Origin: an uncultured delta proteobacterium
Lineage (GTDB): Bacteria; Desulfobacterota; Desulfuromonadia; Geobacterales; DSM-12255
Direction: 5' to 3'
Assembly (NCBI GenBank): GCA_963787125.1
Contig: CAWBBV010000016.1
Coordinates: forward strand, 21,679-85,678
DNA length: 64,000 nucleotides
The position numbers and the translations under genes were made by a program. Below, piece by piece: positions 9,001 through 35,725 of the stretch (the first letter of the stretch is position 1; each line of letters starts with the position of its first letter). The notes under the pieces are model-generated. The model did no database searches and was not told the DNA's origin. It saw only the letters and a program-made list of their open reading frames with translations.

Positions 9001-9361
9001 CTTTGGATGGATCGATAAGGGGTAAAAGAGCATTGATGCTATTGCCGGTAAGACTCAGGACGCGGATTTGGTCAGCGAGGGTATCAACGGAAAGCGGCGT
9101 CTGCCCTTGCAGCCAGGAAGCGCCGGTGGTATAGGAGGTTCCGGCGGTCTGGTTCAGGAGTTTGAGAGTTTCCAGTGCGCCAACCGTGACAGCGGTGGTC
9201 TCAACCGGAGTGGTACTGGTCTCCCAGGTGCCATCAGGGTTTTGGGATGCGGAGAGGTAGCCAAGGCCGCTTGCTATCTGCGGTAGCTGGGCGTGAGCCG
9301 CCATGGTGAATATCAATGAGCAGAACATCGCCAAAATAATGAACAACTGCCGTCTATGCAT
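1..9361 (-). CDS. Giant secreted/cell-surface multidomain protein; N-terminal >3,100 codons, C-terminus beyond the left window edge
   Basis: Missing from the ORF track because it has no in-window stop. Minus-strand frame opens at ATG 9361..9359 (AGGAGG 5 nt upstream); no other minus ORF is listed in that frame down to nt 1. My translation: MHRRQLFIILAMFCSLIFTMAAHAQ (signal peptide). SQNPDGTW/SQNPDGGWG/HQNLDGGFG/AQSLNGSWN repeats, prenyltransferase/terpene-cyclase-like (~8530-9290). Many carboxypeptidase-regulatory-like beta-sandwich repeats (~6800-8500). Ig-like modules. A ConA/LamG-like segment (~4900-5460: FSDNFNDGVLDIDRWS...GKFRIKRVGSSLDLYFWNGSNW). RCC1-type propeller repeats (~540-1490: KDGSLWSWGWNASGQVGDG, KDGSLWAWGSNYSGRLGDG, SDGSLWTWGNNYSGQLGDG). 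Confidence 0.85.
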   Translation of the reverse strand, partial: MHRRQLFIILAMFCSLIFTMAAHAQLPQIASGLGYLSASQNPDGTWETSTTPVETTAVTVGALETLKLLNQTAGTSYTTGASWLQGQTPLSVDTLADQIRVLSLTGNSINALLPLIDPSKGAWGGDEGYFVNSLDTSLALQALKATNFSDITIINNALAYLTSSQNPDGGWGFSVGDDSNIYLTAIVSATLQQFPQMISIATAVNRATTYLLAHQNLDGGFGTAYETALAFIALVGNGQTQDLPLQNAINFLTGAQSLNGSWNDDPYATALAIKAIYLFENRPAPPPAPPSAGKITGTLLDTITRQGVNGVAVVLENNPVINTVTDASGNFTLADVPPGAQKIVFTLSGYLSASASATSIADTSVSLGIVAITSAYTTGTISGTILDPSGKPLPEVAIAVSGAWSGNALTGADGAFSFSYVTPGDVTITATKTGYLSFSGTGRVYARTTLAISPRLSATPSTITTGTIIGRVVGDLWGLPIDHLLGEQGVRVTISGGAFVDPNPDDGGKFTFEGLAPNTYQVTVGMSGFISQTFRLVITPGVTTDLGTIRLVMSANTITLTGMVTDSLTRLPITAAEIMVVGSNLTARTDFAGTYVVADIKEMGFTVKIAASGYVGRTIILKQPGGKAAMWTQQLDVALTPLETKGSLSGIVVDAVSGQPLAGVALTTIADPAVSVTTDSSGIFTFAALPKGVQQVTISLSGYSLRTLTTAILPGMVNNAGSIPLSSNPLPATIRGTVTDGMTNLPFADAVILARGGGDNQTASTSEGVYSLDNVTPGLVTVTAATARAGYFPASFTASLEPGGILIFSPTLFNNLSPTVSVAVQTDKTVYSKGETINISAALQNPQSIELAATLRLEVIDPNGMTVYDTSSPANLAADGSLTLNQSFPLPLSALGGNYTVTANMYDATGIWIGSATQSFGVAVSRITVNPLLPAAFSSGPNSISFNLANSGTLPIASGNLTVTLKDPDGQSVATAEQPFSLNVGESKTLSTTITVPPLKFGTYTLDYSQSDETRNGMATSIALPNTLAIDATFDSNSHRVRSTAGLTLRLNNTGRFNLDAGTSVTVTVPDANMSMTETLSSAPAVGSANGSTFLYRVQIREYFTSGEHNVIATVTLPSNSSATKGTKLVIFEAVLTLMPLPGKYNAGDTINHVISNSGGVDSPLELSLRLYDAKGMPVAAKNDSVTVMAGGSLSPALVIPAGAVDGSYNLVINFKDLTTGKEETVTHPLTISGVKGSLTVQTGKQNYLTTEGINSLSSITNSGIALQDGNLHLQVTSATGSNKQQTWTSQADFQQGTRNGVDTIETVDAVTLLAFSDNFNDGVLDIDRWSLGSAPNGPLPMEENGYFLLDLPWSTGGWNGTSATTRAPLTGDFDAMVDYNIVSPWQPASNNHPAGMMVSVGGWSARIDVWGSSPTYGVIDSYGQYRNTGPVLLNGKFRIKRVGSSLDLYFWNGSNWDNMMSYGGEPISGPAYLSLLNFGPTGNSNVQYDNFLVTTQTYPDSGTLNLKYDSAANSETWDKLTFNGDMPNGTAMKFRTRTAETEADLAEATWSSYLTASGSQITSPKGRWIEVEGTLSTTDRAVTPVLRDITVSREHKPGDIFWQTDIPVNLAQGVLADPNNLIGAIGQIGKYYLQGTLTANTGQAFATAEYPFYVVQGDTLFSINPDRKMYKPGETVTISGEVTNLATIEAANLSLTVKARVFAVSENLLQDTFSIPAGSSHPFKVTTIAGTDGLVNLTATIIQSAATLASVADYYEVVSPKVTATLNGPESAGSDPFTLTLTLVNSSRIAAVVSVANSVNSIVETVIIPAGQTKTLQYQQQITANKINTFNISGDLALQLTKSVVYTAPKQVAKVNVKAVTDKFVYDANKPVAVAATVTCLDVGLNVESLTAKVLISNSSGEVFFADRFILPTLDAGRSYTFSRYWNSGSHPEGAYYVRLEVEAGGVVLATSEEYFYIRSSAYTRTELAGTIAPTINSVYQSVDEVFAVTLVNNGNEHMERFIVVQAINPDTYEVMAQSTRLVTFSQQGTFSGNINLPTTSLNERNYLAALRISVPADGWYYDPLRDTAPPLALTRFNVMATPPPSLLLSTLANGAVTNNQTLNIAGNATSMFDLDKSIIINGIQVPVNFDSSFSHALLLQEGSNDVTVTVLDALGHKVTETRTIIFDQAAPVLTITAPADNSNSATPLISITGTVTEGTTVQVKLGENVQIAEMSGSVFTVALSLLPGWNTIEITATDLTGKQNNAKRTLFFDAQKPSLAITDPGQDILTGKNIIKGTVDPQSVAGINIYVNGWLYTPQVVDGAFEQILYFPVGGENGYEKRDYAVYVSATNAVGEEITSVQRNVIYDITAPAVAIDTVISPTNQNRQTITGTRDSGAMITVNCATAFVGKVIYRSATTWSVVVSGFNANGNDITVTAVNAAGNSGNATASIVYDIISPTGSITINSGAEITGVTTVQLTLNASDDTGVTRMKFSTDRSNWTFPEEYSSARLWTFASGDGMKQLFVKYGDAAGNWSIEQSASISLTEILKVIITAPQSGFTSNAVPLLTFTANVGTVVVKVDGVVVAKSSGDYLDHLTDGMHTVRIEATDVAGNMGYAERSFVVDLTSPILVSPVISVSSYAHTVAVLKDGSLWSWGWNASGQVGDGTTEDKLSPVRIGTDVDWSEVIAGFVHTLALKKDGSLWAWGSNYSGRLGDGTTEDKLVPVKIGQDNDWRALAAGGNNSFALKKDGTLWGWGSNDYGTLGDETTEPKLVPSRIGTDSDWLAIAAGGDAYIVALKSDGSLWTWGNNYSGQLGDGTRESKFLPTKIGTDTDWQSITAGNDFTMAIKSNGTLWGWGTNESGQLGDVDPEGTLVPIQIGLDTNWNAVSAGWGRVIALKKDRTLWCWGGDYCGQQIDSMDQSGTAPVKSKVTNVSSLADIKGSSSLVIKDDGSLWGWGDSWSGLFADGITQFSEIPTVVPIVNGNGLFINNGATVTTSSAVLLSFAAVDISGVTEMQFSNDNDGWSAPEPYTNSKNWILSGEMGIKTVYARFKDAVGNWSQAYSNTIIADISIVTTPPGLLVNPGVTPTNLNFQTISGTTDAGAIVTIAVDPGTVAGPVSFTTPTTWSCSVTGLREGV

Positions 9362-9396: not shown

Positions 9397-9837
9397 TCAT
9401 TTACTTGTGGCTATTTCATTTACCCTACGTATTAAATCAGCTGCTTGTGAAATAAACTTTAATTCTATTCTATTGCTATCAAACTCAATAATAATACATC
9501 CACGTTTTGCATCTGTTATAGATATATTTGATAAATTAGATAACGGTATTATATTAATAATCCTATCCATTTTCATAAATGAGTCATATTTCGGCATATC
9601 AAGCTCAATTCTATCATTATATAATGTTATTGCTTGACTGGAACTTTTACATAATAAAAGTAGAAGTATTAGTAAAATAATAGATATAGCTATAAATAAC
9701 CATGCCATTAAATATATTTTACTTACATATAAAACTATTGAAATAGATGTAATTACACACCACGTGAAAGCTAGATATATCACAATATTAATCTTAGAAA
9801 ATGACTTATTGTAAAATAATATATTGCAATTATTCAT
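9397..9837 (-). CDS. Small AT-rich membrane protein (2 predicted TM helices + ~75-aa soluble tail); candidate cognate partner/immunity gene of paralogue A
   Basis: 146-aa ORF. Hydrophobic stretches IVIYLAFTWCVITSISIVLYV and WLFIAISIILLILLLLL. My hand count of a 60-nt sample (9421-9480) gives 30% GC. Removing the IS1380 element makes its ATG overlap the stop of paralogue A (ATGA). Confidence 0.7.
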   Translation of the reverse strand: MNNCNILFYNKSFSKINIVIYLAFTWCVITSISIVLYVSKIYLMAWLFIAISIILLILLLLLCKSSSQAITLYNDRIELDMPKYDSFMKMDRIINIIPLSNLSNISITDAKRGCIIIEFDSNRIELKFISQAADLIRRVNEIATSK

Positions 9838-9857
9838 ACTGTCTCCTCTCGTTTAAT

Positions 9858-11530
9858 CCCGAATCCGCAAACCTTTGCCGGACACATTCATACAGGGTGA
9901 TTTCGGAGGTATTTTTTTGAGTGAGACCCCATTGAGGGGAGTCGAAATCACAGTTTTCAGCAAATTTCAAAAAGTGACGAGCTATTTTCCTCTTCAGGCG
10001 GTGTTTTTGCCGAATTAGGGACGAACTGCCACCTTGATCTTGTTTTTTGCTCTTTGACAATCTTGTTTTCAGTGTTTCCTTTAGCCGGTTACCGGCTGGA
10101 GCCTGCTGATTCTCGCCTGTATTCTGTCAGGGCGAAGCTTCTCCAGCCACCAGCCGTTGACTTTTAGCAGGTTCTTGCGAGCATGATTGACCACGATTGC
10201 CGCACTACGCAGCAGATAATCCTGAATGGTCTTGATCCGCCGCCGCACTGGTGTTGCCTGACTGTCCGTCTCTATATCACCAGTTTCATCCCGCCACTGC
10301 TGGCCCAGCAAAATTAGCAGATTGTAGGCCATGGTTCCCAATGTAAGGAATACTTCGTTGACACTGAAGGTCTGGGAGGGAAACCGTTCCAGGTCCAGAT
10401 CGTGCTTAAGCTCTTTGTTTGCCTCCTCTGCCGCTCCACGTCCCCGATAGAGTTCGAATGCTCGCTGCGGGGTAACATCTTTGGGCAGGTTGGTGGCCAG
10501 TACGTGATAGCGGACATCATTGATCAGCAGTGGCTCCCCTTTTTCGTCTACAGACTTGATCTGAACGCAGAAGACGAAGCGGCGTGGAATCTTCCAGCCG
10601 CTTGGGGTGTACTCGAATTCTCCGTAGAACTCACCACCGAAGTCCGTGACTTTGAGGCTCATAACGTCTACATCGAGATTCTCGTTTACCACCCGGTCCA
10701 AAGCGCCACTGGTTCGGGCCTTGACCAGATAGTACGCCCCGGCATCTTCGCTGGCCTGGACAGTTTTGATGCTATAGAGCCCGGCATCGTAGCGAAAGAG
10801 GAGCTTGTTTCGATCTATCTTCTCAGGGAGCAGCTCTGCCGTTTCCCTGATAAAATCGTCAATCCGTTCGACAGCTTTCTCTCGTCCTGGCAACAGCCAG
10901 TGATTGATGCAGAACCGTTCGCGACCTACAACAGCAAATACGGGGGTATAGCAGAGTTTGCCGTTGTATGTGGTTTGAGCACCTTCTCGTTTGGGCGCAA
11001 ACTGCTCAAAAATACTTGGATCAATATCGCAAGGGATGTAACCTTCAGCTCCCGGTTCAGCAGTGATGGTTGCCTGGGAAACAATCTTTGCTCCGACCCG
11101 CTTGAGACCAGTGATCTGCTCTTTGCCATATTTTTCAAGATGCGTGGCAACAGCCCGTTCTTTTGGGAGTTTGTTAAAGCCAAGCGACTTCTTGAGCAGT
11201 TTTTCTTCCCGAGCGAGCCAGGCAAGATCAGTGTAACTAGTCCGGCGTAGGGAAATGTTTAGTAACAGCGGGATCAGATGTTCCTCTTCCCGGAAGCCGT
11301 AGTCGATCTTCTTGACCCGCACCTCGCTTCTGATTGCTCGAATCAAATCGAGACGGCGTATGAGGGTGGTGAGCAACTCCAATCCTGCTACGGAAGTTAG
11401 TGTCTGTCGGGCTGCTACATACTGGAAACCAAGATTGTCTTTCACCATTCGGGTGAACTCCTTCACTGCAATTATGTGAAGGATTATAGCATGTTACGTT
11501 ACATTAGCCCAATAGTTTTGCGGATTGGGG
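9858..11530 (-). mobile_element. IS1380-family insertion sequence (1,673 bp) with 5-bp TTAAT target duplication
   Basis: Terminal inverted repeats CCCGAATCCGCAAACCT (9858->) and CCCCAATCCGCAAAACT (11530<-) match 15/17. They are flanked by direct TTAAT at 9853-9857 and 11531-11535. Length, CC-starting IRs and a single ~455-aa DDE transposase fit IS1380-family characteristics. Confidence 0.8.
10081..11448 (-). CDS. IS1380/IS4-like DDE transposase
   Basis: ORF track 10081..11466 starts at GTG. ATG at 11448 (MVKDNLGF...) has GAAGGAG upstream. C-terminal ...YRGRGAAEEANKELKHDLDLERFPSQTFSVNEVFLTLGTMAYNL is the Y-(2)-R-(3)-E-(6)-K style signature region of IS4/IS1380-type DDE transposases. Confidence 0.85.
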   Translation of the reverse strand: MVKDNLGFQYVAARQTLTSVAGLELLTTLIRRLDLIRAIRSEVRVKKIDYGFREEEHLIPLLLNISLRRTSYTDLAWLAREEKLLKKSLGFNKLPKERAVATHLEKYGKEQITGLKRVGAKIVSQATITAEPGAEGYIPCDIDPSIFEQFAPKREGAQTTYNGKLCYTPVFAVVGRERFCINHWLLPGREKAVERIDDFIRETAELLPEKIDRNKLLFRYDAGLYSIKTVQASEDAGAYYLVKARTSGALDRVVNENLDVDVMSLKVTDFGGEFYGEFEYTPSGWKIPRRFVFCVQIKSVDEKGEPLLINDVRYHVLATNLPKDVTPQRAFELYRGRGAAEEANKELKHDLDLERFPSQTFSVNEVFLTLGTMAYNLLILLGQQWRDETGDIETDSQATPVRRRIKTIQDYLLRSAAIVVNHARKNLLKVNGWWLEKLRPDRIQARISRLQPVTG

Positions 11531-11910
11531 TTAATAAATTCAATCAATGCTATATTTATTAACATTTGACCAACTGTTAATAGTGCAACCAATAATATTC
11601 CAAGGCCAATGATGGCTAAGCCAAATGGTGTTGCAGCAATTAATGTAGTTAATGCAGTCCCCATATAACCTGATAAAATATAGCCTAATACACTTGTTCC
11701 ACCAGTCCCTAGTAGAGATGAAAATAAAGTTTTCCCAAGGTTAAAATCAGTGTTATTTATGAGTGAGTCTAATGTTGAAATTAGAAATGAAGACAACACT
11801 GTAACTACCAAAGCCGCTACGCCTAAACCTGACAATGCTAGCAGTACTGATATCAATGTAAATGCTCCCCATAAAAGGTCTTTCCCTAAATTAACCGCAC
11901 ACCCACTAGC
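11494..11910 (-). other. Variable C-terminal module CT-A (138 aa, multi-helix hydrophobic, Gly/Ala/Ser-rich)
   Basis: Similarity to paralogues B/C ends after GYMISGG. Sequence ASGCAVNLGKDLLWGAFTLISVLLALSGLGVAALVV...GLAIIGLGILLVALLTVG. My hand count of 11541-11600 gives 27% GC, against 58% for 13201-13260 in the conserved body. Confidence 0.75.
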
Positions 11911-14541
11911 CCCCCCGCTAATCATATACCCGCCAGCCCCAGTCTCCGGATTGGTAATGATATAACCACACCCATTCCACCCATTGAAGTTGATGTTGGT
12001 CTTGGAAACAGTAACAACTTTTCCGGCATTGACGGCATTGGCGATGTCGTCCTTTGTTTGCTGGTCTACCTGCAACTGCGGCATTACTGTAGCAATATTT
12101 GACTGGTTGATTGTATAGATCGGTATCCCCTGGTCATTGGCAATCTTGAGCGCCTTGACCGTGCTGATTCCTTGCACTGAGTTACTTGGCGTGGAGAAGA
12201 GCTTCTCCGGCACATTGTGCTCCAGCGCCGAGGAAGTCATGCCGCTGGAGAGCATATACTGCTTGGCGGTCTCGCTGTTGCCGTCTTTTGCCTTTACTAC
12301 CTGCATCAGATAATCAGCATCCATATTGAGTCCGCCGGAACTGATATAGCGCGGTATTCCCCAAAGACACATTACTTTGAGCTTGGTGGCGAAGATGGTT
12401 TCTGACGGTACGGTGATGGCGTTGACGTTCATGGTTTTTGCGGCAATGTAGTTCATGGTGCCGAGTTCGGCATGATAGGCCATGGCGGTGGTGTAGAGGA
12501 GATCACCGATCAGATCATCTTTGGTCATGCCGGCGAAGTCGTTGTTCTGCAGTTTTGCTTTGGTAGCTTCCAGTTTTGCTTTGAGCCCGGTTAACTGCTC
12601 GGCGCTGATTCGCCCCAGGTTGAGCCCGATTGCCTGGTACACCCCGGCGTCAATGTAGTTGGTTATCTGGCTTGAGCCGTAAGCCGGGTCGCTGAAGGTC
12701 ATGGTGGAGATGTTGGTGCCGCCAAGGCCTACCGGCGCTCCGGTGGCCACTACCTGACCGTCAATCCTGAGTTCCGGTTTGACGTTGATCAGATACGCCG
12801 GTAGTTGGCTGGGCAGTTCGCTTGGCTGTATGGGGGTGCCGTCTGCATGCGGGCTTGGCAGGTAGGAATTGATGACTGCTTCATCCTGGGCGGTTGCCGG
12901 ACTGTAGCTGAGGGTAATCTTTTTGCCTGCCAGTTCTGCGAGGCTTTTGGTTATGCTCAGTGAGTTGTCCACCGGTGCCGGTGCTTCGGGATCAATGAAG
13001 GTGTTGGATGCTTCGTTCTCTACCCTGAAGGAGAGCTTGTGCCGCAAGCTGTCTGGGATGCTTGCAAACGTGCTCCCCTTGACGGCGGTGCGGTACGGCA
13101 GGGTACCGAGGAGATGGCGGTATTCTTTTTTGATGATCTCTTTTTTGCCGAGGACGTCGCCGACAGTGGCGTTGGCGTGGTTCTGCTGGATGTAGCTCTG
13201 TACCCGTGCCTGGTAGTCTTGCATGGTCTGCTGGGTGAGGATGGAGTTGATGCCGGTGACGTAGCCTTGAGTTTCGTTGATAGTGGCGGTGGCCTTGATC
13301 TGGTCGAGGAACGCTTGAGCGTCGAAGGGGACTGCTGTCTTGATGTCGATGCCCTGGGTGAAGTTGTACTGCTTGTAGCTCGGATCAAGAGGTATCCAGG
13401 TGTCACCCTTGCCGCTTATATGCTTTGCGCCACGGGAGGGGATGTAGTTGATGAAAGCTTCGACCGAGACATGTTCAAAACGGGCAGCAACGATCTTGCC
13501 GCCGCTAACCAGTCCCTTGGTGGGAATGCCGCCGCTGGACATGAAATCGAGGGCGGACAGTGGGTCGGTGAAGCCTCCGGCCCAGTTCATGACTTTATCA
13601 ATGGGGAGTTCTACTGTGCCGGTGACATAGCGGGCATTGATCCCGGCAGCTCGCAGCAGAGCGATGAGGAGGGAACTTGTATCAAAGGAGTTGCCCTGCC
13701 TGGTGAGCAGGGTCATCTGCGCCCCCTGGATGGAGCCCCAGGTGGGGACGAACTCGACGTTGTTCCGTACCCACTCGTAAATCTTTACCGGATTATTCCC
13801 CAGCTCCAGAGCCTTGGCCTTTATTTCGGGGGTGAGCTGGACTTCTATGTTTTCTGCCAGATCATCGGCAGGCAGCAGGCCGGCAACTGAGCCGTTGGCG
13901 GCAACCATGATCCGCTTGGCGCTCTTCCAGGCATGTTTGTCTTTTTTGAAATCCTTGTCGAAGTCTTCTTTCTTCAGCCGCGGTTCGCGTTTTTGAGCTT
14001 TGGGCTGGCGGTGAGGGAGGTTGTTCGGGTCGAGCTTCTGGTGGCGGGAGGGGGCTTTGGCCCGCTCAAGATGCTGGCGGGTCTTGTCAATGGCAGCTTG
14101 CAGCTCGGCATCGTTCTTTGCCGTTGCCGCCCGCTCAAGGTTCCCTTTCAGTTCAGTCAGGTTGTCATCGTAATGTTTGACGAACTTCTGATGCCGCGCC
14201 AAGATCTCGGGCGACATGCCAGAAGCCTTCAGTTTCTTCTCAGTGGCGGCGAGTTCGCTGCGGATGGCGGTGTCATGGGCGTCCAGCTCCGCTCTGGCAG
14301 CGCTCAGCCGCTGTTTTTTGTGATCATGGCCGGTTTTGGGATCTTGGAGATCGGCAGTCAGCTCCTCAGTAAGCTTGGCGAAGCGCTCTTCCGCCCCCTC
14401 GCTCTTCCTGGTCGGAGTTTCCTGGTTCCCCTTTTTAACGGCATCCACCGCCCCGTGGGCAAGGCTAAAGACACCACCTGATGTCCAGGTGAAGAATGAC
14501 AGTACAACTGCGGCAATGACTCTTGAGTACTTGCGAAACAT
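11494..14541 (-). CDS. Paralogue A: exported transglutaminase-fold protein with variable hydrophobic C-terminal module (last ~12 codons supplied by IS1380)
   Basis: 1015 aa. Signal peptide MFRKYSRVIAAVVLSFFTWTSGGVFSLAHG. K/E-rich coiled coil. Transglutaminase-like core GNSFDTSSLLIALLRAAGINARYVTG...FEHVSVEAFINY...WIPLDPS. Body ends NFNGWNGCGYIITNPETGAGGYMISGG. RBS GGAGA before ATG 14541. Confidence 0.9.
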   Translation of the reverse strand: MFRKYSRVIAAVVLSFFTWTSGGVFSLAHGAVDAVKKGNQETPTRKSEGAEERFAKLTEELTADLQDPKTGHDHKKQRLSAARAELDAHDTAIRSELAATEKKLKASGMSPEILARHQKFVKHYDDNLTELKGNLERAATAKNDAELQAAIDKTRQHLERAKAPSRHQKLDPNNLPHRQPKAQKREPRLKKEDFDKDFKKDKHAWKSAKRIMVAANGSVAGLLPADDLAENIEVQLTPEIKAKALELGNNPVKIYEWVRNNVEFVPTWGSIQGAQMTLLTRQGNSFDTSSLLIALLRAAGINARYVTGTVELPIDKVMNWAGGFTDPLSALDFMSSGGIPTKGLVSGGKIVAARFEHVSVEAFINYIPSRGAKHISGKGDTWIPLDPSYKQYNFTQGIDIKTAVPFDAQAFLDQIKATATINETQGYVTGINSILTQQTMQDYQARVQSYIQQNHANATVGDVLGKKEIIKKEYRHLLGTLPYRTAVKGSTFASIPDSLRHKLSFRVENEASNTFIDPEAPAPVDNSLSITKSLAELAGKKITLSYSPATAQDEAVINSYLPSPHADGTPIQPSELPSQLPAYLINVKPELRIDGQVVATGAPVGLGGTNISTMTFSDPAYGSSQITNYIDAGVYQAIGLNLGRISAEQLTGLKAKLEATKAKLQNNDFAGMTKDDLIGDLLYTTAMAYHAELGTMNYIAAKTMNVNAITVPSETIFATKLKVMCLWGIPRYISSGGLNMDADYLMQVVKAKDGNSETAKQYMLSSGMTSSALEHNVPEKLFSTPSNSVQGISTVKALKIANDQGIPIYTINQSNIATVMPQLQVDQQTKDDIANAVNAGKVVTVSKTNINFNGWNGCGYIITNPETGAGGYMISGGASGCAVNLGKDLLWGAFTLISVLLALSGLGVAALVVTVLSSFLISTLDSLINNTDFNLGKTLFSSLLGTGGTSVLGYILSGYMGTALTTLIAATPFGLAIIGLGILLVALLTVGQMLINIALIEFINPNPQNYWANVT

Positions 14542-14799
14542 TTATGTCTCCAAAATTACCGTAATTGATTTCCAGAAGTCGGGGCTCAGATCCGTCGGGC
14601 AATCGCCAGGAGCCTTAATCTTGAGAGAAGCGAGAATCTGCCCTTCTTCGGGATCGGTGAAGTCAATATCGTCACCCATCTCGACAAAACAATCCGTATC
14701 TTCCGGCAACCTGATCATTTGCAGCAGAGCATAACGGACCTGATAGAGATAGCCGAGGGCCTGTTTGCCTGCGGAGAAATTGTCGGTTGTGTCAGCCAT
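14542..14799 (-). pseudogene. 85-codon fragment resembling the N-terminus of DUF4297/Cap4-type dsDNA-nuclease (defence-effector) proteins; apparently truncated
   Basis: MADTTDNFSAGKQALGYLYQVRYALLQM...VEMGDDIDF...TDLSPDFWKSI resembles the G-(F/Y)-x-Y-Q ... E-x-x-D-D-I ... W-K N-terminal pattern of that family (recognised from memory, not searched). The ORF stops (TAA) directly abutting the ATG of paralogue A, at about a third or less of normal family length. Confidence 0.4.
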
Positions 14800-14904
14800 G
14801 AGATATCACCTTTAAATTCAAAGAAATGATAGTCCATGGTTATTGACCCTCCTAAAGAACATATGGCCGTTTCTCCTTTCTCACCAATGTAGACCAGAAT
14901 AAAT

Positions 14905-15333
14905 TTAATTGGTTACCAACCAAAAAAGCCCAACAATGTTAGTTGCGATTATTATTATTATTATTTGCCAACCATAAACCCCTGTTTTAAGAGTTGAAAT
15001 TCTAGGGCATGACTTCGAGTAAATTATATCTAAAGGCTCTTTCTTTAATTTCTTATAAAGAGCATCATGTTCAAGTTCATCAATTGTATTATAAATTGGA
15101 TTCATAAAACTTATCCTGGTTCCAATGTGTTTATCACTATCCACCGTGTACTCATATTTGATATTAACTGAGACAAAACGTGCCTTTTGCACTTTCAATT
15201 CAATTATATTCCCTGTAGCATGAGGCCAATTTTTTGAAGTTAAGCCTAAATATACAACTAATAATAAATAACTAGTCGAGCAAATCATAATAAGCATAAG
15301 CAGCACTGAAAATGCATCCATTTTGCACCTCAC
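14905..15333 (-). CDS. Small AT-rich membrane protein, DUF3592-like (TM - beta domain - TM); candidate partner/immunity gene of paralogue B
   Basis: 142 aa. N-terminal TM FSVLLMLIMICSTSYLLLVVYLGL, then WPHATGNIIELKVQK...VNIKYEYTVDSDKHIGTRISF (pattern typical of DUF3592), then C-terminal TM WQIIIIIIATNIVGLFWLV. Lies 65 nt downstream of paralogue B. Confidence 0.7.
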   Translation of the reverse strand: MRCKMDAFSVLLMLIMICSTSYLLLVVYLGLTSKNWPHATGNIIELKVQKARFVSVNIKYEYTVDSDKHIGTRISFMNPIYNTIDELEHDALYKKLKKEPLDIIYSKSCPRISTLKTGVYGWQIIIIIIATNIVGLFWLVTN

Positions 15334-15398
15334 ACAAAAGTCTAATTTAAAATTTAGATCATAATTTATGGCGAGTATTTATATAGAGTTATCTATAA

Positions 15399-15758
15399 TC
15401 ATACTATTTGTCTTTTTATTCCAAACCTATTAATTGCATAGAGCGCTACACGCAAATCGAGATAAGCAGCTAATGCAATCATAATGTATAAAGCTATTGC
15501 TCCTGCTGGTGCTAATATCAAAGCCGAGCTAAGAGTCACTTGTATTACGAAATTCGCAAAAATGGCACTCCAATTATGATCAATCGACAAACCTTCAGCT
15601 CCATCGACAATTCCTGATCCTATTAGACTTATAGCTGTTGCAAGAAAAGTAGTTATTGCAACTCCACCAATTTCACCGATCATCAACAATAAACCTATTT
15701 CTGGCCCAAAAGTTAAAACTAGCATGAATAATACAGACCACATCGCAATTATTAAGTA
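15399..15758 (-). other. Variable C-terminal module CT-B (119 aa, multi-helix hydrophobic)
   Basis: Identity with paralogue C ends after GYMISGGSNGG. Then YLIIAMWSVLFMLVLTFGPEIGLLLMIGEIGGVAITTFLATAISLIGSGIV...ALILAPAGAIALYIMIALAAYL; visibly AT-rich. Confidence 0.75.
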
Positions 15759-17450
15759 TCCACCATTCGACCCCCCACTAATCATGTACCCACCAGCCCC
15801 GGTATCCGGGTTAGTGATAATATAACCACACCCAATCCAGCCATTGAAGTTGATGTTGGTCTTGGAAACAGTAACAACCTTCCCTGCGTTGACGGCGTTT
15901 AGAATATCGTCCTTCACCTGCTGATCGACCTCCAACTGCCACATTACAGTTCCGATGTTCGCCTGATTAACCGTGTAGATCGGTATCCCCTGGTCATTAG
16001 CAATTTTTAGCGCCTTGACCGTGCTGATCCCTTCGGCTTTGTTGTCCGGTGTGGAGAAGAGCTGTTCCGGGACGCTGTGCTCCAGCGCCGAGGAAGTCAT
16101 GCCGCTGGAGAGCATATACTGCTTGGCGGTCTCGCTGTTGCCGTCTTTTGCCTTTACTACCTGCATCAGATAATCAGCATCCATGTTGAGTCCGCCGGAA
16201 CTGATATAGCGCGGTATTCCCCAGAGACACATTACCTTGAGCTTGGTGGCGAAGATGGTTTCTGACGGTACGGTGATGGCGTTGACGTTCATGGTTTTTG
16301 CCGTGATGTAGTTCATGGTGCCGAGTTCTGCATGATAGGCCATGGCGGTGGTGTAGAGGAGGTCACCGATCAGATCATCTTTGGTCATGCCGGCGAAGTC
16401 GTTGTTCTGCAGTTTTGCTTTGGTAGCTTCCAGTTTTGCTTTGAGCCCGGTTAACTGCTCGGCGCTGATTCGCCCTAGATTGAGGCCGATGGCCTGATAG
16501 ACCCCGGCGTCAATGTAGTTGGTGATCTGGCTTGAGCCGTAGGCAGGGTCGCTGAAGGTCATGGTGGAGATGTTGGTGCCGCCCAGACCTACCGGTGCTC
16601 CGGTGGCTACTACCTGCCCGTCAATTCTGAGTTCGGGTTTGACGTTGATGAGGTATGCCGGGAGCTGGCTGGGCAGTTCGCTTGGCTGTATGGGGGTGCC
16701 GTCGGCATGCGGGCTTGGCAGATAGGCGTTGATGATAGCTTCGTCCTGAGGGGTGGCCGGGGAGTAGCTTAAGGTTATCTTCTTGCCTGCCAGTTCTGCG
16801 AGGCTTTTGGTTATGCTCAGTGTGTTGTCCACCGGTGACGGTGCATCAGGATCGACGAAGGTGTTTGAGGCTTCGTTCTCTACCCTGAAGGAGAGCTTGT
16901 GCCGCAAGCTGTCGGGGATGGTGGTGAATGTTGCCCCCTTGACAGCGGTGCGGTACGGCAATGTGCCGAGAAGATGGCGGTACTCTTTTTTGATGATCTC
17001 TTTCTTGCCAAGAACATCGCCGACAGTGGCATTGGCGTGGTTCTGCTGGATATAGCTCTGTACCCGTGCCTGGTAGTCCTGCATGGTCTGCTGGGTGAGG
17101 ATGGAGTTGATGCCGGTGACGTACCCTTGTGTTTCATCAATAGTGGCGCTGGCCTTGATCTGATCAAGGAACCCCTGGGCGTCGAAGGGGACTGCTGTCT
17201 TGATGTCGATTCCCTGGGTAAAGTTGTACTGCTTGTAGCTCGGATCAAGAGGTATCCAGGTGTCACCCTTGCCGTTTACATGCTTTGCTCCACGGGAGGG
17301 GATGTAGTTGATGAAGGCTTCGACCGAGACATGCTCAAAGCGGGCAGCAACGATCTTGCCTCCGGCAACCAGACCTTTGGTGTGAAGTGGTTGCGCTTTA
17401 TGAGACATGTGTGTAAGCAATGAACCTCCCTATTTCAAAAGGAGAGTTCA

Positions 17451-17759
17451 ATGCAACAACATCGTACACGTCACAGCGCAGCTTTTAAGGCCAAGGTCGC
17501 TTTGGCCGCCTTATCAGAGTCAAAGACTCTGGCAGAGCTTGCAACCGAGTACCAGGTTCACCCGACCCAGATCACCCGTTGGAAGCAGGATCTGATTGCA
17601 AATGCTTCTGACCTTTTTGGCAAGGGCAAAAAGAAAGAAGTCAACCATGAGGGCGAAGTGGCCGAGCTTCACCGCCTGATCGGCAAGCTCAAGGTTGAGA
17701 ATGATTTTTTGTCACATCTGCCCGGGCTGAACTTGGCCGGGCGCAGAAACAACAAGTGA
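17451..17759 (+). CDS. IS3-family transposase OrfA (HTH)
   Basis: 102 aa; HSAAFKAKVALAALSESKTLAELATEYQVHPTQITRWKQDL is a helix-turn-helix followed by a leucine-zipper-like LHRLIGKLKVEND. Confidence 0.9.
   Translation: MQQHRTRHSAAFKAKVALAALSESKTLAELATEYQVHPTQITRWKQDLIANASDLFGKGKKKEVNHEGEVAELHRLIGKLKVENDFLSHLPGLNLAGRRNNK
17705..17711 (+). promoter_or_regulatory. Candidate -1 programmed ribosomal frameshift heptamer T-TTT-TTG
   Basis: In the orfA frame the codons read gaT TTT TTG (D-F-L), an X-XXY-YYZ slippery motif. Shifting -1 here reads on without a stop into the orfB frame (FFVTSARAELGRAQKQQVIATGHP...). Confidence 0.6.
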
Positions 17760-18592
17760 TCGCCACCGGTCATCCTGAAGTTTCTGTTGAACGCCGCTGC
17801 CAGCTTCTGGGTCTGCCTCGTTCCAGCTATTACCGTGGCCCTGCTTCCGGTCTTCGTTCCGGTGACCTGGAAATGATGCAGCGGATCGACAAACTCTACA
17901 TGGAGCAGCCCTGGATGGGGAGCCGCTCACTGGCCAACCACCTCACGACACCTGAAGCACCCTTGGGACGAGATCGTGCCCGTCGCTTGATGCTCATCAT
18001 GGGTATTGAATCCCTGGCTCCTCAGCCGGGCACCAGCAAGCGGCAACCGAAGCATCCGGTCTATCCCTATCTGCTGCGGGGAATGACCATTGACAAGCCC
18101 AATCAGGTCTGGGCGACTGATATCACCTACATCCCCATGGCACGGGGATTCATGTACCTGATAGCGATCATGGACTGGGCCACCAGAAAGGTTCTGTCCT
18201 GGCGTCTGTCCAATACGCTGGATACCCGATTCTGCGTCGAGGCGCTCAAAGAAGCTCTGTTCAAATACGGTGCCCCGGAGATCTTCAACACCGACCAGGG
18301 CTGCCAGTTTACCAGCGAAGCATTCACGTCAGTGCTCAAAACCTGGAACATCAAAATCAGCATGGACGGCAAAGGTCGTTTCAGGGACAACATCTTCGTC
18401 GAACGGCTCTGGCGCACGCTGAAGTATGAGAGAATCTACCTGAACGTTTATGAAACGGGAACCGAACTTTCCAAAGACATGACATACTGGTTCAACTGGT
18501 ACAACGTAACCAGAAAACATACATCTCTTGACAAACTGACACCGGATGAGGCTTATTTCCAAGGACTTGAAAAACTGAAACTGGCAGCCTGA
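17756..18592 (+). CDS. IS3-family transposase OrfB (DDE/rve integrase core); probably made as an OrfAB fusion
   Basis: 278 aa. WATDITYIPM..., NTDQGCQFTS..., ERLWRTLKYE match the DDE(35)E rve catalytic regions. It lies in the -1 frame relative to orfA. Confidence 0.9.
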   Translation: MIATGHPEVSVERRCQLLGLPRSSYYRGPASGLRSGDLEMMQRIDKLYMEQPWMGSRSLANHLTTPEAPLGRDRARRLMLIMGIESLAPQPGTSKRQPKHPVYPYLLRGMTIDKPNQVWATDITYIPMARGFMYLIAIMDWATRKVLSWRLSNTLDTRFCVEALKEALFKYGAPEIFNTDQGCQFTSEAFTSVLKTWNIKISMDGKGRFRDNIFVERLWRTLKYERIYLNVYETGTELSKDMTYWFNWYNVTRKHTSLDKLTPDEAYFQGLEKLKLAA

Positions 18593-19781
18593 AGCCAGAA
18601 AACCACAACAACCAAGGGACATTGCTTATTTCACCCTTCAGGCTGTCTCACTAAGCCCGGCCACCTCAGTGGGAATGCCACCGCTGGACATGAAATCGAG
18701 GGCGGACAGTGGGTCGGTGAAGCCTCCGGCCAAGTTCATGACTTTATCAATGGGGAGTTCTACTGTGCCGGTAACATAGCGGGCATTGATCCCGGCAGCT
18801 CTGAGCAGGGCAATGAGGAGGGAACTTGTGTCAAATGAGTTCCCCTGTCTGGTCAAGAGCGTCATCTGCGCCCCCTGGATGGAGCCCCAGGTGGGGACAA
18901 ACTCGACGTTGTTACGCACCCACTCGTAGATCTTTACCGGATTGTTCCCCAGCTCCAGAGCTTTGGCCTTTATTTCGGGGGTGAGCTGTACTTCTATGTT
19001 TTCTACGAGATCATCGGCAGCCAGTAGGCCGGCAACTGAGCCGTTGGCGGCAACCATGATCCGCTTGGCGCTCTTCCAGGCATGTTTGTCTTTTTTGAAA
19101 TCCTTGTCGAAGTCTTCTTTCTTCAGCCGCGGTTCGCGTTTTTGAGCTTTGGGCTGGCGGTGAGGGAGGTTGTTCGGGTCGAGCTTATGATGGCGGGAGG
19201 GGGCCTTGACCTTTGCCAGGTGCTGACGGGTCTTTTCAAACTCAGCCTCTACATCGGTTTTGCTTTTCGCTTTCTCAACACGATCAATGTTCCCCTTCAG
19301 CTCGGCAAGGTTGTCGTCGTAGTGTTTGACGAACTTTTGGTGACGGGTCAGGATCTCTGGCGGCAGTTTGGCGTTCTTGAGCTTCTTTTCGGTGGCAGCA
19401 AACTCGCTGCGGATGTCGGCGTCAAGGGTGTCTAGCTCAATTTTGGCCGCTAGCAGCTTGTCCCGTTTGGCTCCATGAGCCAGTTTTGAATCGGCCAGTG
19501 TCTCCCGCAACTCCTCAGTGAGTTTGGCCAGCTTCTCTTCCGCTCCTTCGGCCTTTTGCGCCGGAACTGCGGTCTTGGCCTTTTTCGCACCATCAACCGC
19601 TGCATGGGCAGCGCTGAAAACTCCGCCGGATGTCCAGGTGAAGATGAAGAGAACCAGTGTGGCAGTTATTTTTGTGAAGCTATGGGGCATTTTTATCCCA
19701 TCTGCCATCTGAATTTATCTGCTAAGGTAATGTAAAGTCAAGTTGATGCTATTTCTGTAAAAACAAATTATTTATCAGCAG

Positions 19782-20372
19782 TTAGGATATTTCTTTGTAT
19801 AGTACACCATGCCTATTTAATACATCTCTTATCGATTGAACGTCAGCTTCATTTAAATGATGTCCTGTAATAGCGAATACTGAAATTCCATAGTTATTTA
19901 CACATCTGGGTATTATTCCTTTTGTCCGAATGTATAAATAGAATTTTTTTCTTTCATCGCTACCAATTTTCAATAATGATTGGAGCTCATATATGGAATA
20001 AAATTCAATATCAGCCCATTTCTCAGCTATTAATCTGTATATTGGTACTCTAGCGAGAAATTTATTTGGATATAGGGCAATTCCATTGTTTGTGATTATA
20101 AGCTTCATATTTCTTGAATAATTAATATAATATGCTGGCAGCATAACAATAAGTAATATTAACAGTTCAATAACAACCAAACTGATTATACTAAATCTGA
20201 TTATCAATAAATGTGAATATAAAGCATCATAAGTAAATACTAGCAAAACAATAACATTTAGTAAGACTTCTTTGTATGTTATGTATTTGCTTGCCTTTGG
20301 TTTATAAATTGAATCAAATTTACAACATATATCTGCACTTACAATATATTCGTATTTATTTTGTGTTTTCAT
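19782..20372 (-). CDS. Small AT-rich membrane protein (2 TM + ~100-aa C-terminal domain); candidate partner/immunity gene of paralogue C
   Basis: 196 aa. TM stretches LLNVIVLLVFTYDALYSHLLII and FSIISLVVIELLILLIVMLPAYY. The ATG is 7 nt after the stop of paralogue C, with AGGA overlapping that stop (tAGGAtaattATG). Confidence 0.7.
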   Translation of the reverse strand: MKTQNKYEYIVSADICCKFDSIYKPKASKYITYKEVLLNVIVLLVFTYDALYSHLLIIRFSIISLVVIELLILLIVMLPAYYINYSRNMKLIITNNGIALYPNKFLARVPIYRLIAEKWADIEFYSIYELQSLLKIGSDERKKFYLYIRTKGIIPRCVNNYGISVFAITGHHLNEADVQSIRDVLNRHGVLYKEIS

Positions 20373-20379
20373 AATTATC

Positions 20380-20760
20380 CTATAAAAAGAAATATGCTAT
20401 TAAATCAACAAAATATGCACAATAAGCAACAAGGTATTGCACAAGCTGTATTTCAACTGATTGCGGTACTCCTCCACTAAAAGGACTAGGCATGCCTCTT
20501 AGTAAAAATCCTAACGCTATCTGACCTATAATATCCATAATTGCCCCAGATCCTGTAATAATAGTCAAATCAGTCAGGCCATAACTTCTTCCAAATACTG
20601 TTTGTATAGTATTTGCAATTACCACTTGAATAACTGTCGTCAATATAGGAACCATAACTATTCCAAGAGGCGTTGTGAATGTCAAACCAAGTGCAATTGA
20701 TAATAGCAATATCGAAAAGTATGATACCCACATTGCAGATGCGTATGGAAATAATAAATC
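20380..20760 (-). other. Variable C-terminal module CT-C (126 aa, multi-helix hydrophobic)
   Basis: After GYMISGGSNGG: DLLFPYASAMWVSYFSILLLSIALGLTFTTPLGIVMVPILTTVIQVVIA...GAIMDIIGQIALGFLL...LVQYLVAYCAYFVDLIAYFFL. No alignment to CT-A or CT-B; AT-rich. Confidence 0.75.
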
Positions 20761-23403
20761 TCCTCCATTCGACCCCCCACTGATCATATACCCACCAGCC
20801 CCGGTCTCCGGGTTAGTGATAATATACCCACACCCAATCCAGCCATTGAAGTTGATGTTGGTCTTGGAGACGGTAACAACCTTTCCGGCATTGACTGCAT
20901 TAGCGATGTCGTCTTTTGTCTGCTGGTCTAGCTGTAGTTCCCAATATAATGTTCCAAAGTTTTCTTTATTGACCGTGTAGATCGGTATCCCCTGGTCGTT
21001 GGCAATCTTGAGCGCCTTGACGGTGCTAATGGCCTGTGCCGGTGCGTCGGGAGTGGAGAAGAGCTGCTCCGGAACGCTGTGCTCCAGCGCTGATGAGGTC
21101 ATGCCGCTGGAGAGCATGTACTGCCTGGCTGTCTCGCTGTTGCCGTCTTTTGCCTTTACCACTTGCATCAGATAATCAGCATCCATGTTGAGTCCGCCGG
21201 AAGCGATATAGCGCGGTATTCCCCAGAGACACATTACTTTGAGCTTGGTGGCAAAGATGGTTTCTGACGGTACGGTGATGGCGTTGACGTTCATGGTTTT
21301 TGCCGTGATGTAGTTCATGGTGCCGAGTTCTGCATGATAGGCCATGGCGGTGGTGTAGAGGAGGTCACCTATCAGATCATCTTTGGTCATGCCGGCAAAG
21401 TCGTTGTTCTGCAGTTTTGCTTTGGTAGCTTCCAGTTTTGCTTTGAGCCCGGTTAACTGCTCGGCGCTGATTCGTCCCAGGTTGAGGCCGATGGCCTGGT
21501 ACACTCCGGCGTCAATGTAGTTGGTGATCTGGCTTGAGCCGTAAGCCGGGTCAGAGAAGGTCATGGTGGAGATGTTGGTGCCGCCCAGGCCTACCTGTGC
21601 TCCGGTGGCTACTACCTGGCCATCAATTCTGAGTTCCGGCTTTACGTTGATGAGGTAGGCCGGGAGCTGGCTGGGGAGTTCGCTTGGTTGTATGGGGGTG
21701 CCGTCGGCATGCGGGCTTGGCAGATAGGCGTTGATGATAGCTTCGTCCTGAGGGGTGGCCGGGGAGTAGCTTAAGGTTATCTTCTTGCCTGCCAGTTCTG
21801 CGAGGCTTTTGGTTATGCTCAGTGTGTTGTCCACCGGTGACGGTGCATCAGGATCGACGAAGGTGTTTGAGGCTTCGTTCTCTACCCTGAAGGAGAGCTT
21901 GTGCCGCAAGCTGTCGGGGATGGTGGTGAATGTTGCCCCCTTGACAGCGGTGCGGTACGGCAATGTGCCGAGAAGATGGCGGTACTCTTTTTTGATGATC
22001 TCTTTCTTGCCAAGAACATCGCCGACAGTGGCATTGGCGTGGTTCTGCTGGATGTAGCTCTGCACCCGTGCCTGATAGTCCTGCATGGTCTGCTGGGTGA
22101 GGATGGAGTTGATGCCGGTGACGTACCCTTGTGTTTCATCAATAGTGGCGCTGGCCTTGATCTGATCAAGGAACCCCTGGGCGTCGAAGGGGACTGCTGT
22201 CTTGATGTCGATTCCCTGGGTAAAGTTGTACTGCTTGTAGCTCGGATCAAGAGGTATCCAGGTGTCACCCTTGCCGTTTACATGCTTTGCTCCACGGGAG
22301 GGGATGTAGTTGATGAAGGCTTCGACCGAGACATGCTCAAAGCGGGCAGCAACGATCTTGCCTCCGGCAACCAGACCTTTGGTGGGAATGCCGCCACTGG
22401 ACATGAAGTCGAGGGCGGACAATGGGTCGGTGAAGCCTCCGGTCCAGTTCATGATTTTGTCAATGGGGAGTTCTACTGTGCCGGTGACATAACGGGCATT
22501 GATCCCGGCAGCCCTAAGCAGGGCAATGAGGAGGGAACTTGTATCAAAGGAGTTGCCCTGCCTGGTCAGGAGCGTCATCTGCGCCCCCTGGATGGAACCC
22601 CAGGTGGGGACGAATTCGATGTTATTCCTCACCCACTCGTAAATCTTGACCGGATTATTCCCCAGCTCCAGTGCCTTGGCCCTGATCTCCGGGGTGAGCT
22701 GTACTTCTATGGTTTCGGCCAGATCATCGGCAGGAAGCAGTCCGGCAACTGAGCCATTTGCAGCGACCATGATCCGCTTGGCGCTCTTCCAGGCATGCTT
22801 GTTCTTCTTGAGATCCTTGTCGAACTCTTCTTTCTTGAGCCGTGGTTCGCGCTTTAGGGCTTTGGGCTGCCGATGGGGAAGATTGTTCGGATCCAGTTTA
22901 TTGTGATGGGACGGAGCTTTGACCTTTGCCAGGTGCTGGCGAGTCTTCTCAATCTCAGTCTCGACTTCATCCTTGCCTTTCGCTTTCTCAACACGGTCAA
23001 TGTTCCCCTTCAGCTCGGCAAGGTTGTCGTCGTAGTGTTTGACGAACTTCTGGTGACGGGTCAGGATCTCAGACGGGAGTTTGGCGTTCTTGAGCTTCTT
23101 CTCGGTTTCAGCAAACTGCTTGCGGATGTCGGCGTCAAGGGTGTCCAGCTCACCCTTGCGGGACGTCAGCCGCTGTTTCTTGTGCTCATGACTCGTTTTC
23201 GAGTCGAGAAGTTCTGTTGTCAGTTCCTCAGTCAGCTTCGCAAACCGTTCCTCAGCCCCTTCGCTCTTCTTTGCCGGAGCCTCGGTCTTGGCCTTCTTCA
23301 CGGCAGTTGTTGCTGCATGAGCAACGCTGAACACCCCCCCTGAGGTCCAGGTGAAGAAAGACAATACAACTGCGGCGATTATCCTTGAGTGTTTGCGAAA
23401 CAT
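20380..23403 (-). CDS. Paralogue C: intact exported transglutaminase-fold protein with variable hydrophobic C-terminal module
   Basis: ORF track 20380..23424. I prefer ATG 23403 (MFRKHSRIIAAVVLSFFTWTSGG, colinear with paralogue A, GGAGGA 6 nt upstream). Same architecture as A; near-identical to the 3' part of B over ~1.6 kb. Confidence 0.9.
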   Translation of the reverse strand: MFRKHSRIIAAVVLSFFTWTSGGVFSVAHAATTAVKKAKTEAPAKKSEGAEERFAKLTEELTTELLDSKTSHEHKKQRLTSRKGELDTLDADIRKQFAETEKKLKNAKLPSEILTRHQKFVKHYDDNLAELKGNIDRVEKAKGKDEVETEIEKTRQHLAKVKAPSHHNKLDPNNLPHRQPKALKREPRLKKEEFDKDLKKNKHAWKSAKRIMVAANGSVAGLLPADDLAETIEVQLTPEIRAKALELGNNPVKIYEWVRNNIEFVPTWGSIQGAQMTLLTRQGNSFDTSSLLIALLRAAGINARYVTGTVELPIDKIMNWTGGFTDPLSALDFMSSGGIPTKGLVAGGKIVAARFEHVSVEAFINYIPSRGAKHVNGKGDTWIPLDPSYKQYNFTQGIDIKTAVPFDAQGFLDQIKASATIDETQGYVTGINSILTQQTMQDYQARVQSYIQQNHANATVGDVLGKKEIIKKEYRHLLGTLPYRTAVKGATFTTIPDSLRHKLSFRVENEASNTFVDPDAPSPVDNTLSITKSLAELAGKKITLSYSPATPQDEAIINAYLPSPHADGTPIQPSELPSQLPAYLINVKPELRIDGQVVATGAQVGLGGTNISTMTFSDPAYGSSQITNYIDAGVYQAIGLNLGRISAEQLTGLKAKLEATKAKLQNNDFAGMTKDDLIGDLLYTTAMAYHAELGTMNYITAKTMNVNAITVPSETIFATKLKVMCLWGIPRYIASGGLNMDADYLMQVVKAKDGNSETARQYMLSSGMTSSALEHSVPEQLFSTPDAPAQAISTVKALKIANDQGIPIYTVNKENFGTLYWELQLDQQTKDDIANAVNAGKVVTVSKTNINFNGWIGCGYIITNPETGAGGYMISGGSNGGDLLFPYASAMWVSYFSILLLSIALGLTFTTPLGIVMVPILTTVIQVVIANTIQTVFGRSYGLTDLTIITGSGAIMDIIGQIALGFLLRGMPSPFSGGVPQSVEIQLVQYLVAYCAYFVDLIAYFFL

Positions 23404-23467
23404 TCTGTTCCTCCATGAAATCAAAATTCAGTTTTACCGCCATTACAACCCCCTATATTGTAGACAC

Positions 23468-27156: not shown

Positions 27157-27158
27157 GG

Positions 27159-27258
27159 TTACACCGGTCCGAATCTGGGTGGGCGAACCAGCCCGGCAGC
27201 GGCCAAAGACTCCTCGGCGGTCAGTCCGCGTTCACTGCCCTTAATGGCGATTTTGGAC
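27159..27258 (-). CDS. tnsC: tnsC exon 2 (C-terminal 33 codons + stop)
   Basis: Encodes (L)SKIAIKGSERGLTAEESLAAAGLVRPPRFGPV*. It is in frame with exon 1 once the 1,895-nt intron is removed, and the stop is 2 nt before the tnsD ATG. Confidence 0.7.
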
Positions 27259-30685: not shown

Positions 30686-30691
30686 GATGGC

Positions 30692-33675: not shown

Positions 33676-33744
33676 GGCACCCCTCCGGGAATAAGATCAT
33701 CCTAATGACAGAATACACCGATACCCGAAGAAAGCAATGGTCAG

Positions 33745-33809
33745 GACCAAACTTTATTCATCACGAGCAAACTATTTTACCCATGAGCAAACTTTATTAC
33801 ATCTGGACA
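33745..33809. repeat. Tn7-like right end: three abutting ~20-bp TnsB-type binding repeats ending in terminal ...ACA (5'-TGT on the element strand)
   Basis: GACCAAACTTTATTCATCAC / GAGCAAACTATTTTACCCAT / GAGCAAACTTTATTACATCTGGACA. The terminal ACA is at 33807-33809. There are 24 nt (33810-33833) to the glmS stop codon. Confidence 0.75.
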
Positions 33810-33833
33810 AAGGAGTCTTCGGCAAAGCTCAGA

Positions 33834-35669: not shown

Positions 35670-35725
35670 AAAAGTCTCCGTTCAAAATTCATGAATTCAC
35701 TCGACAACTACACTAATAAAAGCGT

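Follow-up and report, generated by a model that had tools for sequence, protein, structure and literature searches.

Three tandem polymorphic toxin-like cassettes with candidate membrane immunity genes on a Tn7-like element of an uncultured delta proteobacterium

In contact-dependent growth inhibition (CDI), the variable tail of CdiA (CdiA-CT) follows a short conserved motif and is encoded beside the adjacent, often overlapping immunity gene for CdiI, and orphan tails occur in arrays; the tail of EC93 is membrane-acting and is matched by a small membrane immunity protein. Rhs-type toxins join a core rich in guanine and cytosine (GC) to AT-rich exchangeable tips. Other pairs of membrane effector and immunity protein are Tme/Tmi, Tse4/Tsi4 and Ssp6/Sip6 of the type VI secretion system and the pore-forming colicins with their Cai- and Cei-type immunity proteins. 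A membrane-depolarising pair of the type VII secretion system is formed by EsxX with ExiCD (PMC12744356), and a survey by Zhang, de Souza, Anantharaman, Iyer and Aravind in 2012 described inactive-transglutaminase polymorphic toxins that depend on Sec and the type II secretion system and in which the domain is always followed by RHS repeats (PMC3482391). Here we describe a 64,000-nucleotide stretch of DNA from an uncultured delta proteobacterium (assembly GCA_963787125.1, contig CAWBBV010000016.1, positions 21,679 to 85,678), hereafter called the window, whose own numbering is used throughout. Its minus strand carries three tandem paralogous genes for proteins of about 1,007 amino acids (aa), here A, B and C, each protein with a Sec-type signal peptide and a transglutaminase-like domain, and each gene is followed by a small open reading frame (ORF), respectively a, b and c, for a predicted membrane protein. 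We consider it likely that the region consists of three tandem polymorphic toxin-like cassettes, in which membrane-acting tails would be encoded together with cognate membrane immunity genes.

The window family shares with the class of PMC3482391 the signal peptide, a transglutaminase domain with a lost catalytic residue, diverse C-termini, a downstream candidate immunity gene and a putative dependence on Sec and the type II secretion system, but differs from it in lacking RHS repeats and in having instead a coiled coil along with about 480 conserved residues that end in the motif GYMISGG. No match to RHS/YD repeats was found in A, B, C or seven other members (Pfam, E<=0.01), and in the full-text literature we found no description of this scaffold beyond that survey. 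The resemblance to CDI lies in the variable tail past a conserved motif, the small gene immediately downstream and the arrays of orphan tails; the large proteins of the window differ in having no two-partner secretion or filamentous haemagglutinin match in Pfam. Neither a VENN motif nor a CdiB-like partner was noticed, although no search was aimed at either, and the neighbouring ORFs that were scanned, some of those present, included no CdiB-like gene. With Rhs/YD-repeat toxins the window has in common a GC-rich core, AT-rich exchangeable tips, a candidate immunity gene and tandem or orphan cassettes, but its large proteins have no YD/RHS, PAAR or VgrG match in Pfam. The known membrane-depolarising pairs likewise combine a hydrophobic C-terminal module with an adjacent gene for a small polytopic membrane protein; the candidate pairs of the window differ from them in showing no sequence similarity to them, no glycine zipper and no recognisable secretion system.

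Cores, tails and small membrane ORFs

Paralogue C (20380..23403, minus strand) is intact and comprises a signal peptide, a coiled coil, the transglutaminase-like domain, a core that runs to GYMISGG and the hydrophobic variable tail CT-C (20383-20773). Its start is probably the ATG at 23403, as database homologues start at MFRK (P0001 has 1007 aa); the longest ORF begins at a TTG at 23424. Paralogue B is split by an insertion sequence (IS) of the IS3 family into a 5' part (18669..19708, minus strand) and a 3' part (15399..17382, minus strand) that includes its tail, CT-B (15402-15771). The native part of paralogue A (11531..14541, minus strand) contains most of CT-A (11531-11911) and is interrupted by a second element, of the IS1380 family; as it stands, the ORF of A extends to 11494 within this element, and 12 IS-encoded residues replace the native KREETV.

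The signal peptides, of the AHA/AHG type (e.g. MFRKHSRIIAAVVLSFFTWTSGGVFSVAHA/A), were assigned by eye, and a coiled coil of about 110 aa separates them from the transglutaminase domain. The sole Pfam match in each of A, B and C is to Transglut_core (~1e-14). The nucleophile column of this domain holds A, D, S or V in all 20 aligned sequences, with the His (H357) and Asp (D386) retained; the domain has lost its nucleophilic Cys and is predicted to be inactive. The roughly 480 conserved residues that follow it end in GWxGCGYIIxxPxTGAGGYMISGG, and an alignment of the core from 20 diverse members has a mean column identity of 57%, with invariant residues up to G880. Foldseek searches with a model of the large protein recovered the transglutaminase fold alone, and a sequence search of the PDB gave a single weak transglutaminase match; the stretch of about 480 aa that links the transglutaminase domain to the tail had no domain match by Pfam, Foldseek or PDB sequence search.

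Within this region, a near-invariant Cys in GWxGCGY stands directly before the tail, and D741, D743 and E774 are invariant and H775 near-invariant (alignment A1, P0001 numbering). These residues fall at about 741-880 of C in P0001 numbering, or about 748-887 when counted from the TTG at 23424 (window ~20760-21180, minus strand), where no known domain matches. As a speculation, the tail could be released by self-processing in the region around the GWxGCGY Cys.

The boundary between core and tail is sharp. In BLASTN comparisons the cassettes are 84-94% identical in DNA sequence up to C:20773, A:11911 and B:~15765, where the similarity ends abruptly, a few codons past GYMISGG, and beyond which it is undetectable. 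The tails after the break have 123-132 residues, are hydrophobic and glycine-rich, and were modelled as about four helices each. They are mutually unrelated, and so are the three small proteins, as the preliminary description of this DNA had already noted: no pairwise BLASTP similarity was found among small proteins or among tails (best E 0.57 and 0.86, respectively), and remote homology among a, b and c was also absent, hhalign comparisons of the profiles of a and b with the c family being blank as well. Composition breaks at the same place, the GC content being 54-55% for cores, 35.5-37% for tails and 24-31% for small ORFs. Because tail and small ORF share a low GC content and the drop from 54% to 36% falls at the boundary, the two appear to form one compositionally foreign module on a native-looking core.

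Small ORF c (19782..20372, minus strand; 196 aa) is predicted to encode two transmembrane helices and a PH-like domain. Its junction with C is as first described: the stop TAG (20382-20380) and the ATG of c (20372-20370) are separated by 7 nucleotides (nt), and AGGA (20381-20378) overlaps the stop. Small ORF b (14905..15321, minus strand) has 138 aa from an ATG at 15321, or 142 aa from a GTG at 15333, with N- and C-terminal transmembrane segments flanking a beta-rich domain. The 65-nt gap originally reported between B and b is right when measured from the TGA of B (15401-15399) to the GTG at 15333, but grows to 77 nt with the better-supported ATG at 15321. We consider the longer gap more likely because AGGTG lies 4 nt before this ATG and because the resulting length of 138 aa equals that of a homologue whose start, when aligned, falls no more than a few residues away from ATG 15321. 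Small ORF a (9397..9837, minus strand; 146 aa) has hydrophobic residues at 14-73, about two transmembrane helices, and a soluble C-terminal domain.

The junction of A with a had to be reconstructed. The IS1380-family element occupies 9858..11530 (minus strand), and its transposase (10081-11466; NCBIfam NF033539, 237.8 bits against a cut-off of 180) is read in the same direction as A and a. Its terminal inverted repeats of 17 nt (9858-9874 and 11514-11530) are complementary at 15 of 17 bases, and the duplication ATTAA is present on both flanks (11535-11531 and 9857-9853); a DDE transposase, inverted repeats and a target duplication of 4-5 bp are the marks of the family, and all are found here. 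Since the target duplication is clean, the flanks must have been contiguous before insertion. Removing the element and one repeat copy in silico bore out the junction originally proposed: it yields an ORF of 1009 aa that ends in IEFIKREETV and a stop, and the ending gtATGA overlaps the ATG of a (reconstructed junction GAATTTATTAAACGAGAGGAGACAGTATGAATAATTGC), with GAGGAG 5 nt before this ATG. The result is identical for a 4-bp or a 5-bp duplication. The native 3' end of A that the element has cut off (a CGA GAG GAG ACA GTA TGA) now lies at 9834..9852 (minus strand), with the GAGGAG ribosome-binding site and the ATGA overlap with ORF a at 9837-9834. The broader proposal that each small ORF is tightly or translationally coupled to its paralogue is consistent with the A-a overlap and the 7 nt between C and c; B and b are closely linked and not translationally coupled.

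No IS-free allele of cassette A was found, either by exact-protein look-up of a or with 26-mers from each flank, which had no match among JGI metagenome contigs. The look-up of a returned a single other contig (Logan ERR12037365, locus L001), which begins inside the same IS1380 right end (L001 1-30); this break suggests that the sample holds several copies of the element and also the IS-bearing allele seen here. Elements of the ISEcp1 type carry an outward promoter that drives genes past the 3' end of the transposase. ORF a lies beyond the transposase 3' end, so by analogy it may still be expressed despite its uncoupling from A.

At their GC content of 24-31%, the frames of a, b and c would stay open by chance with probabilities of 5e-7, 6e-6 and 1e-8, respectively, and none of 5000 shuffles gave a frame as long. 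Searches of the small ORFs for known toxin or immunity domains with Pfam, NCBIfam and PADLOC had no significant result. The description of b as DUF3592-like proved weaker than first stated: b itself matches PF12158 at E=0.2 (12.8 bits), and its homologue in locus L004 reaches E=5.6e-5 with 24.2 bits, the cut-off being 25.3, so that both matches are weak and below the curated threshold. DUF3592 is a transmembrane family that is also present in LXG toxin loci (PMC12482557). A structure model of c, of moderate quality (predicted local distance difference test score, pLDDT, 66.5), shows two transmembrane helices, a beta domain and a capping C-terminal helix. Nearly all Foldseek matches of this model are PH domains, including the bacterial 3dcx and 3hsa, and are weak (best E 6e-3); c itself has no Pfam match, and a remote relative of c matches DUF5673 and bPH_3, all below curated thresholds. 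By predicted topology and these weak, sub-threshold matches, c bears a tentative likeness to the bacterial PH-domain membrane proteins (bPH).

Promoter-like sites were found in each tail-coding region, 22 in total against 16.1 +/- 4.4 in shuffled sequence, and we gave no weight to internal promoters for the small ORFs.

Pairing of tails and downstream genes in the family

Database searches returned 1269 protein matches to the large proteins, and a scan of one genome per species gave 368 matches; 73 loci were fetched, and related loci are cited here by L numbers. Named relatives come mostly from Geobacter, Desulfuromonas and their kin, and the species scan found the family mainly in Geobacterales/Desulfuromonadales and Nitrospirota, with some members in other phyla; Geotalea daltonii FRC-32 and Geothermobacter hydrogeniphilus HR-1 are culturable carriers. 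Spacing and co-variation were examined in 88 non-redundant members with a complete 3' end and a downstream ORF. In 66 of these 88 a same-strand ORF starts between -20 and +30 nt from the stop, and the commonest spacing is -4 (12 of 88). Tails are similar in 43 of 3916 pairs of members and downstream ORFs in 23, with both similar in 15, which corresponds to an odds ratio of 259; as the pairs are not phylogenetically independent, the associated p-value is not to be taken literally.

The B-b and C-c pairs recur on diverged cores. In another locus with a C-type tail, the downstream ORF is 58%, the tail 68% and the core only 65% identical to the counterpart in cassette C, and the gap is likewise 7 nt. 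Only five homologues of c were found in 5.8 billion proteins, and all of those with an examined genomic context follow C-type tails, one of them behind an orphan, frameshifted core-end fragment. Similarly, the ORF behind a B-type tail in another locus shares 47% identity with b. The recurrence of the b and c pairs, the shared low GC content and the -4 spacing of the family together back the earlier suggestion of a dedicated partnership between each small ORF and the C-terminus encoded upstream of it. Truncated orphan units of core end, tail and small ORF are arrayed in three loci (L042, L066 and L078).

Other members of the family carry C-termini that are recognisable as toxins, which the three tails of the window do not. 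Two have matches to NlpC/P60-CHAP peptidoglycan hydrolases above the Pfam cut-off (1.2e-9 and 1.4e-13), one matches prokaryotic phospholipase A2 just below the cut-off (2.5e-6), another contains the motif CCxxHDxCY and looks phospholipase A2-like by eye, and weak ART-like matches occur among further tails. The hydrolase-type and ART-like tails that we tested are mostly followed by proteins of 300-430 aa, several of them, of 300-350 aa, with beta-propeller repeat matches, and the phospholipase A2 tail by a three-helix membrane protein. It is our impression from the loci, gained by inspection and not by tabulation, that hydrophobic tails tend to precede small proteins with several predicted membrane helices. 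Among the features by which polymorphic toxins are defined in PMC3482391, a shared, predicted export core, a sharp hypervariable boundary, a co-varying downstream gene and tandem as well as orphan cassettes were found in the window and its relatives.

Giant downstream protein, Tn7-like element and recombination scar

A gene for a giant, probably exported protein starts 35 nt after a (1..9361, minus strand) and encodes more than 3120 aa within the window. The protein begins with alpha/alpha-toroid repeats of the QNPDGGWG type (SQHop_cyclase_C, Prenyltrans and TED-like matches), continues with CarboxypepD_reg and MG2 repeats, and lacks the CxEQ thioester motif. Toroid giants with CARDB or CarboxypepD_reg repeats also follow the cassette in L005, L021, L028, L060, L065 and L078, and in L004 a giant CarboxypepD_reg protein lies downstream, for which no toroid domain was noted. 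Of 74 related loci, 17 have a downstream ORF of 700 aa or more on the same strand, and all 17 belong to the roughly 40 loci in which about 3 kb or more of sequence remain past the last family gene. Because giants recur after the pairs in many unrelated loci, a functional link is suggested, and the giant protein may act together with the cassettes.

A Tn7-like element inserted beside glmS (window 23690-37096, minus strand) carries the array as cargo. All genes of this segment lie on the minus strand: glmU (35726-37096), glmS (33834-35669), tnsA (32836-33675), tnsB (30692-32839), the TniB-like tnsC (29009-30685), tnsD/TniQ (25339-27156) and an ORF of 550 aa without assignment (23690-25342). Between tnsC and tnsD stands an ORF for a group II intron reverse transcriptase/maturase (27338-28849; RVT_1 1.5e-41, GIIM 1.3e-14); the C-terminus of tnsC looks altered, and the intron may have inserted into or beside this gene.

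The IS3-family element that splits B (17383..18668, plus strand; orfA 17451-17759, orfB 17756-18592) encodes a transposase that scores 247.9 bits against the NCBIfam cut-off of 160. It is flanked by a 3-bp duplication, CAC (18669-18671 and 17380-17382), and its removal restores one open frame in B. Two of the three toxin-like genes, A and B, have thus been hit by IS elements, with C untouched and the small ORFs a, b and c all intact; the insertions into A and B occurred recently. Between cassettes A and B lies an N-terminal remnant of the Lamassu gene lmuA (14542..14799, minus strand; 85 codons; PADLOC LmuA, 7.8e-12), which ends exactly at the ATG of A and is best read as marking a recombination scar between the cassettes. 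In L002 and L006 an intact LmuA-MC3-LmuB operon follows an A-like cassette (L002 7380-11013). Given this intact operon and the position of the remnant at the ATG of A, cassette A appears to have taken the place of most of a defence operon.

Interpretation of the cassettes

If these are toxin cassettes, the large protein would be exported by Sec, and its exchangeable tail would be an effector acting on the envelope. The tails of the window would enter the cytoplasmic membrane from its periplasmic face and disrupt it, and each small ORF would encode a partner in the inner membrane, most probably an immunity protein that counters its one tail within the membrane. Tail and small ORF would be exchanged together as a unit of low GC content, joined by recombination to the high-GC core at GYMISGG. 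An immunity start on or next to the toxin stop, as in the ATGA of A-a and in C-c, where 7 nt intervene and the ribosome-binding site lies over the stop, would tie synthesis of immunity to that of toxin, B and b being only closely linked. Such coupling is the expected signature of toxin/immunity pairs and no surprise by itself.

Several results weigh against this reading. The three tails of the window match no known toxin family in Pfam, NCBIfam or PADLOC, none of them contains a GxxxGxxxG glycine zipper, and they could be plain membrane anchors. The AlphaFold2 model of C is poor (pLDDT 54.8, predicted template modelling score 0.28), the neighbouring ORFs scanned in the window include no recognisable secretion or delivery system, and the co-variation within the family comes, as said, from pairs that are not independent by descent. 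No homologue of ORF a was found in 5.8 billion proteins (word-indexed) or in 1.84 billion cluster representatives (HMMER). In the closest relative of tail A the first ~75 residues are common and the rest differs, and it is followed by a different overlapping ORF of 67 aa; with a lacking homologues and this relative having another downstream ORF, the A-a pairing rests on a single locus.

Alternatively, the tails might attach a non-toxic exported or surface protein to the membrane, with the small ORFs as structural or regulatory partners and a diversity that stems from relaxed constraint or from pressure by phages or predators. This would suit tails of about four hydrophobic helices without a toxin-domain match, and the frequent presence of a giant surface-type protein downstream, which suggests a shared envelope structure. 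Relaxed constraint, however, fails to explain why identity switches from 94% to undetectable and GC content drops by 18 points at one motif, peptidoglycan-hydrolase and phospholipase domains occupy the same position elsewhere and are paired with periplasmic beta-propeller proteins, and arrays of truncated orphan tails with small ORFs are typical of toxin systems. We therefore regard anchoring as unlikely, and somewhat less likely still is a role of the small ORFs as export or stabilising chaperones, or as release factors, for hydrophobic tails. Toxins with transmembrane segments often need dedicated helpers, and tight coupling would suit a stoichiometric chaperone, but the small proteins are themselves predicted to be integral membrane proteins and their ORFs persist beside orphan and IS-disrupted toxin genes. 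The partner also changes with every tail type, and soluble enzymatic tails pair with exported beta-propeller proteins, which is the pattern expected of immunity in the compartment of the toxin.

One could also suppose that none of the small ORFs is a gene, or that the orphan a at any rate is not, and that the reconstructed A-a overlap is a coincidence; this seems to us very improbable. It is true that a has no homologue in the databases searched and that an IS-free allele was not found; yet a frame of 146 codons at 24% GC is expected by chance at about 5e-7 and was reached in 0 of 5000 shuffles, its ATG is preceded by GAGGAG at a distance of 5 nt, ORFs at the corresponding place in other loci are 47-58% identical to b and c, and an overlap of -4 is the commonest spacing of the family.

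On the reading of the region as toxin-like cassettes with cognate immunity genes, a further and distinctly more tentative proposal can be made, which we rate as possible and no higher. The family might represent an undescribed route of interbacterial antagonism in Gram-negative anaerobes (Geobacterales, Nitrospirota), in which a Sec-exported inactive-transglutaminase scaffold would display exchangeable envelope-targeting tails and use no known specialised secretion system, possibly with the participation of the giant toroid protein. The three tails of the window would then be new membrane-disrupting families, countered by unrelated immunity proteins (PH-like, DUF3592-like and orphan).

If the cassettes are what we take them to be, a family of more than 1,200 members that is annotated merely as 'transglutaminase domain-containing protein' would be a toxin delivery scaffold common in Geobacter-type bacteria and Nitrospirota. 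Such cassettes would travel as Tn7-like cargo at the glmS site, and new membrane-active toxins, as well as new folds of immunity proteins, would be at hand in their tails and partner genes.

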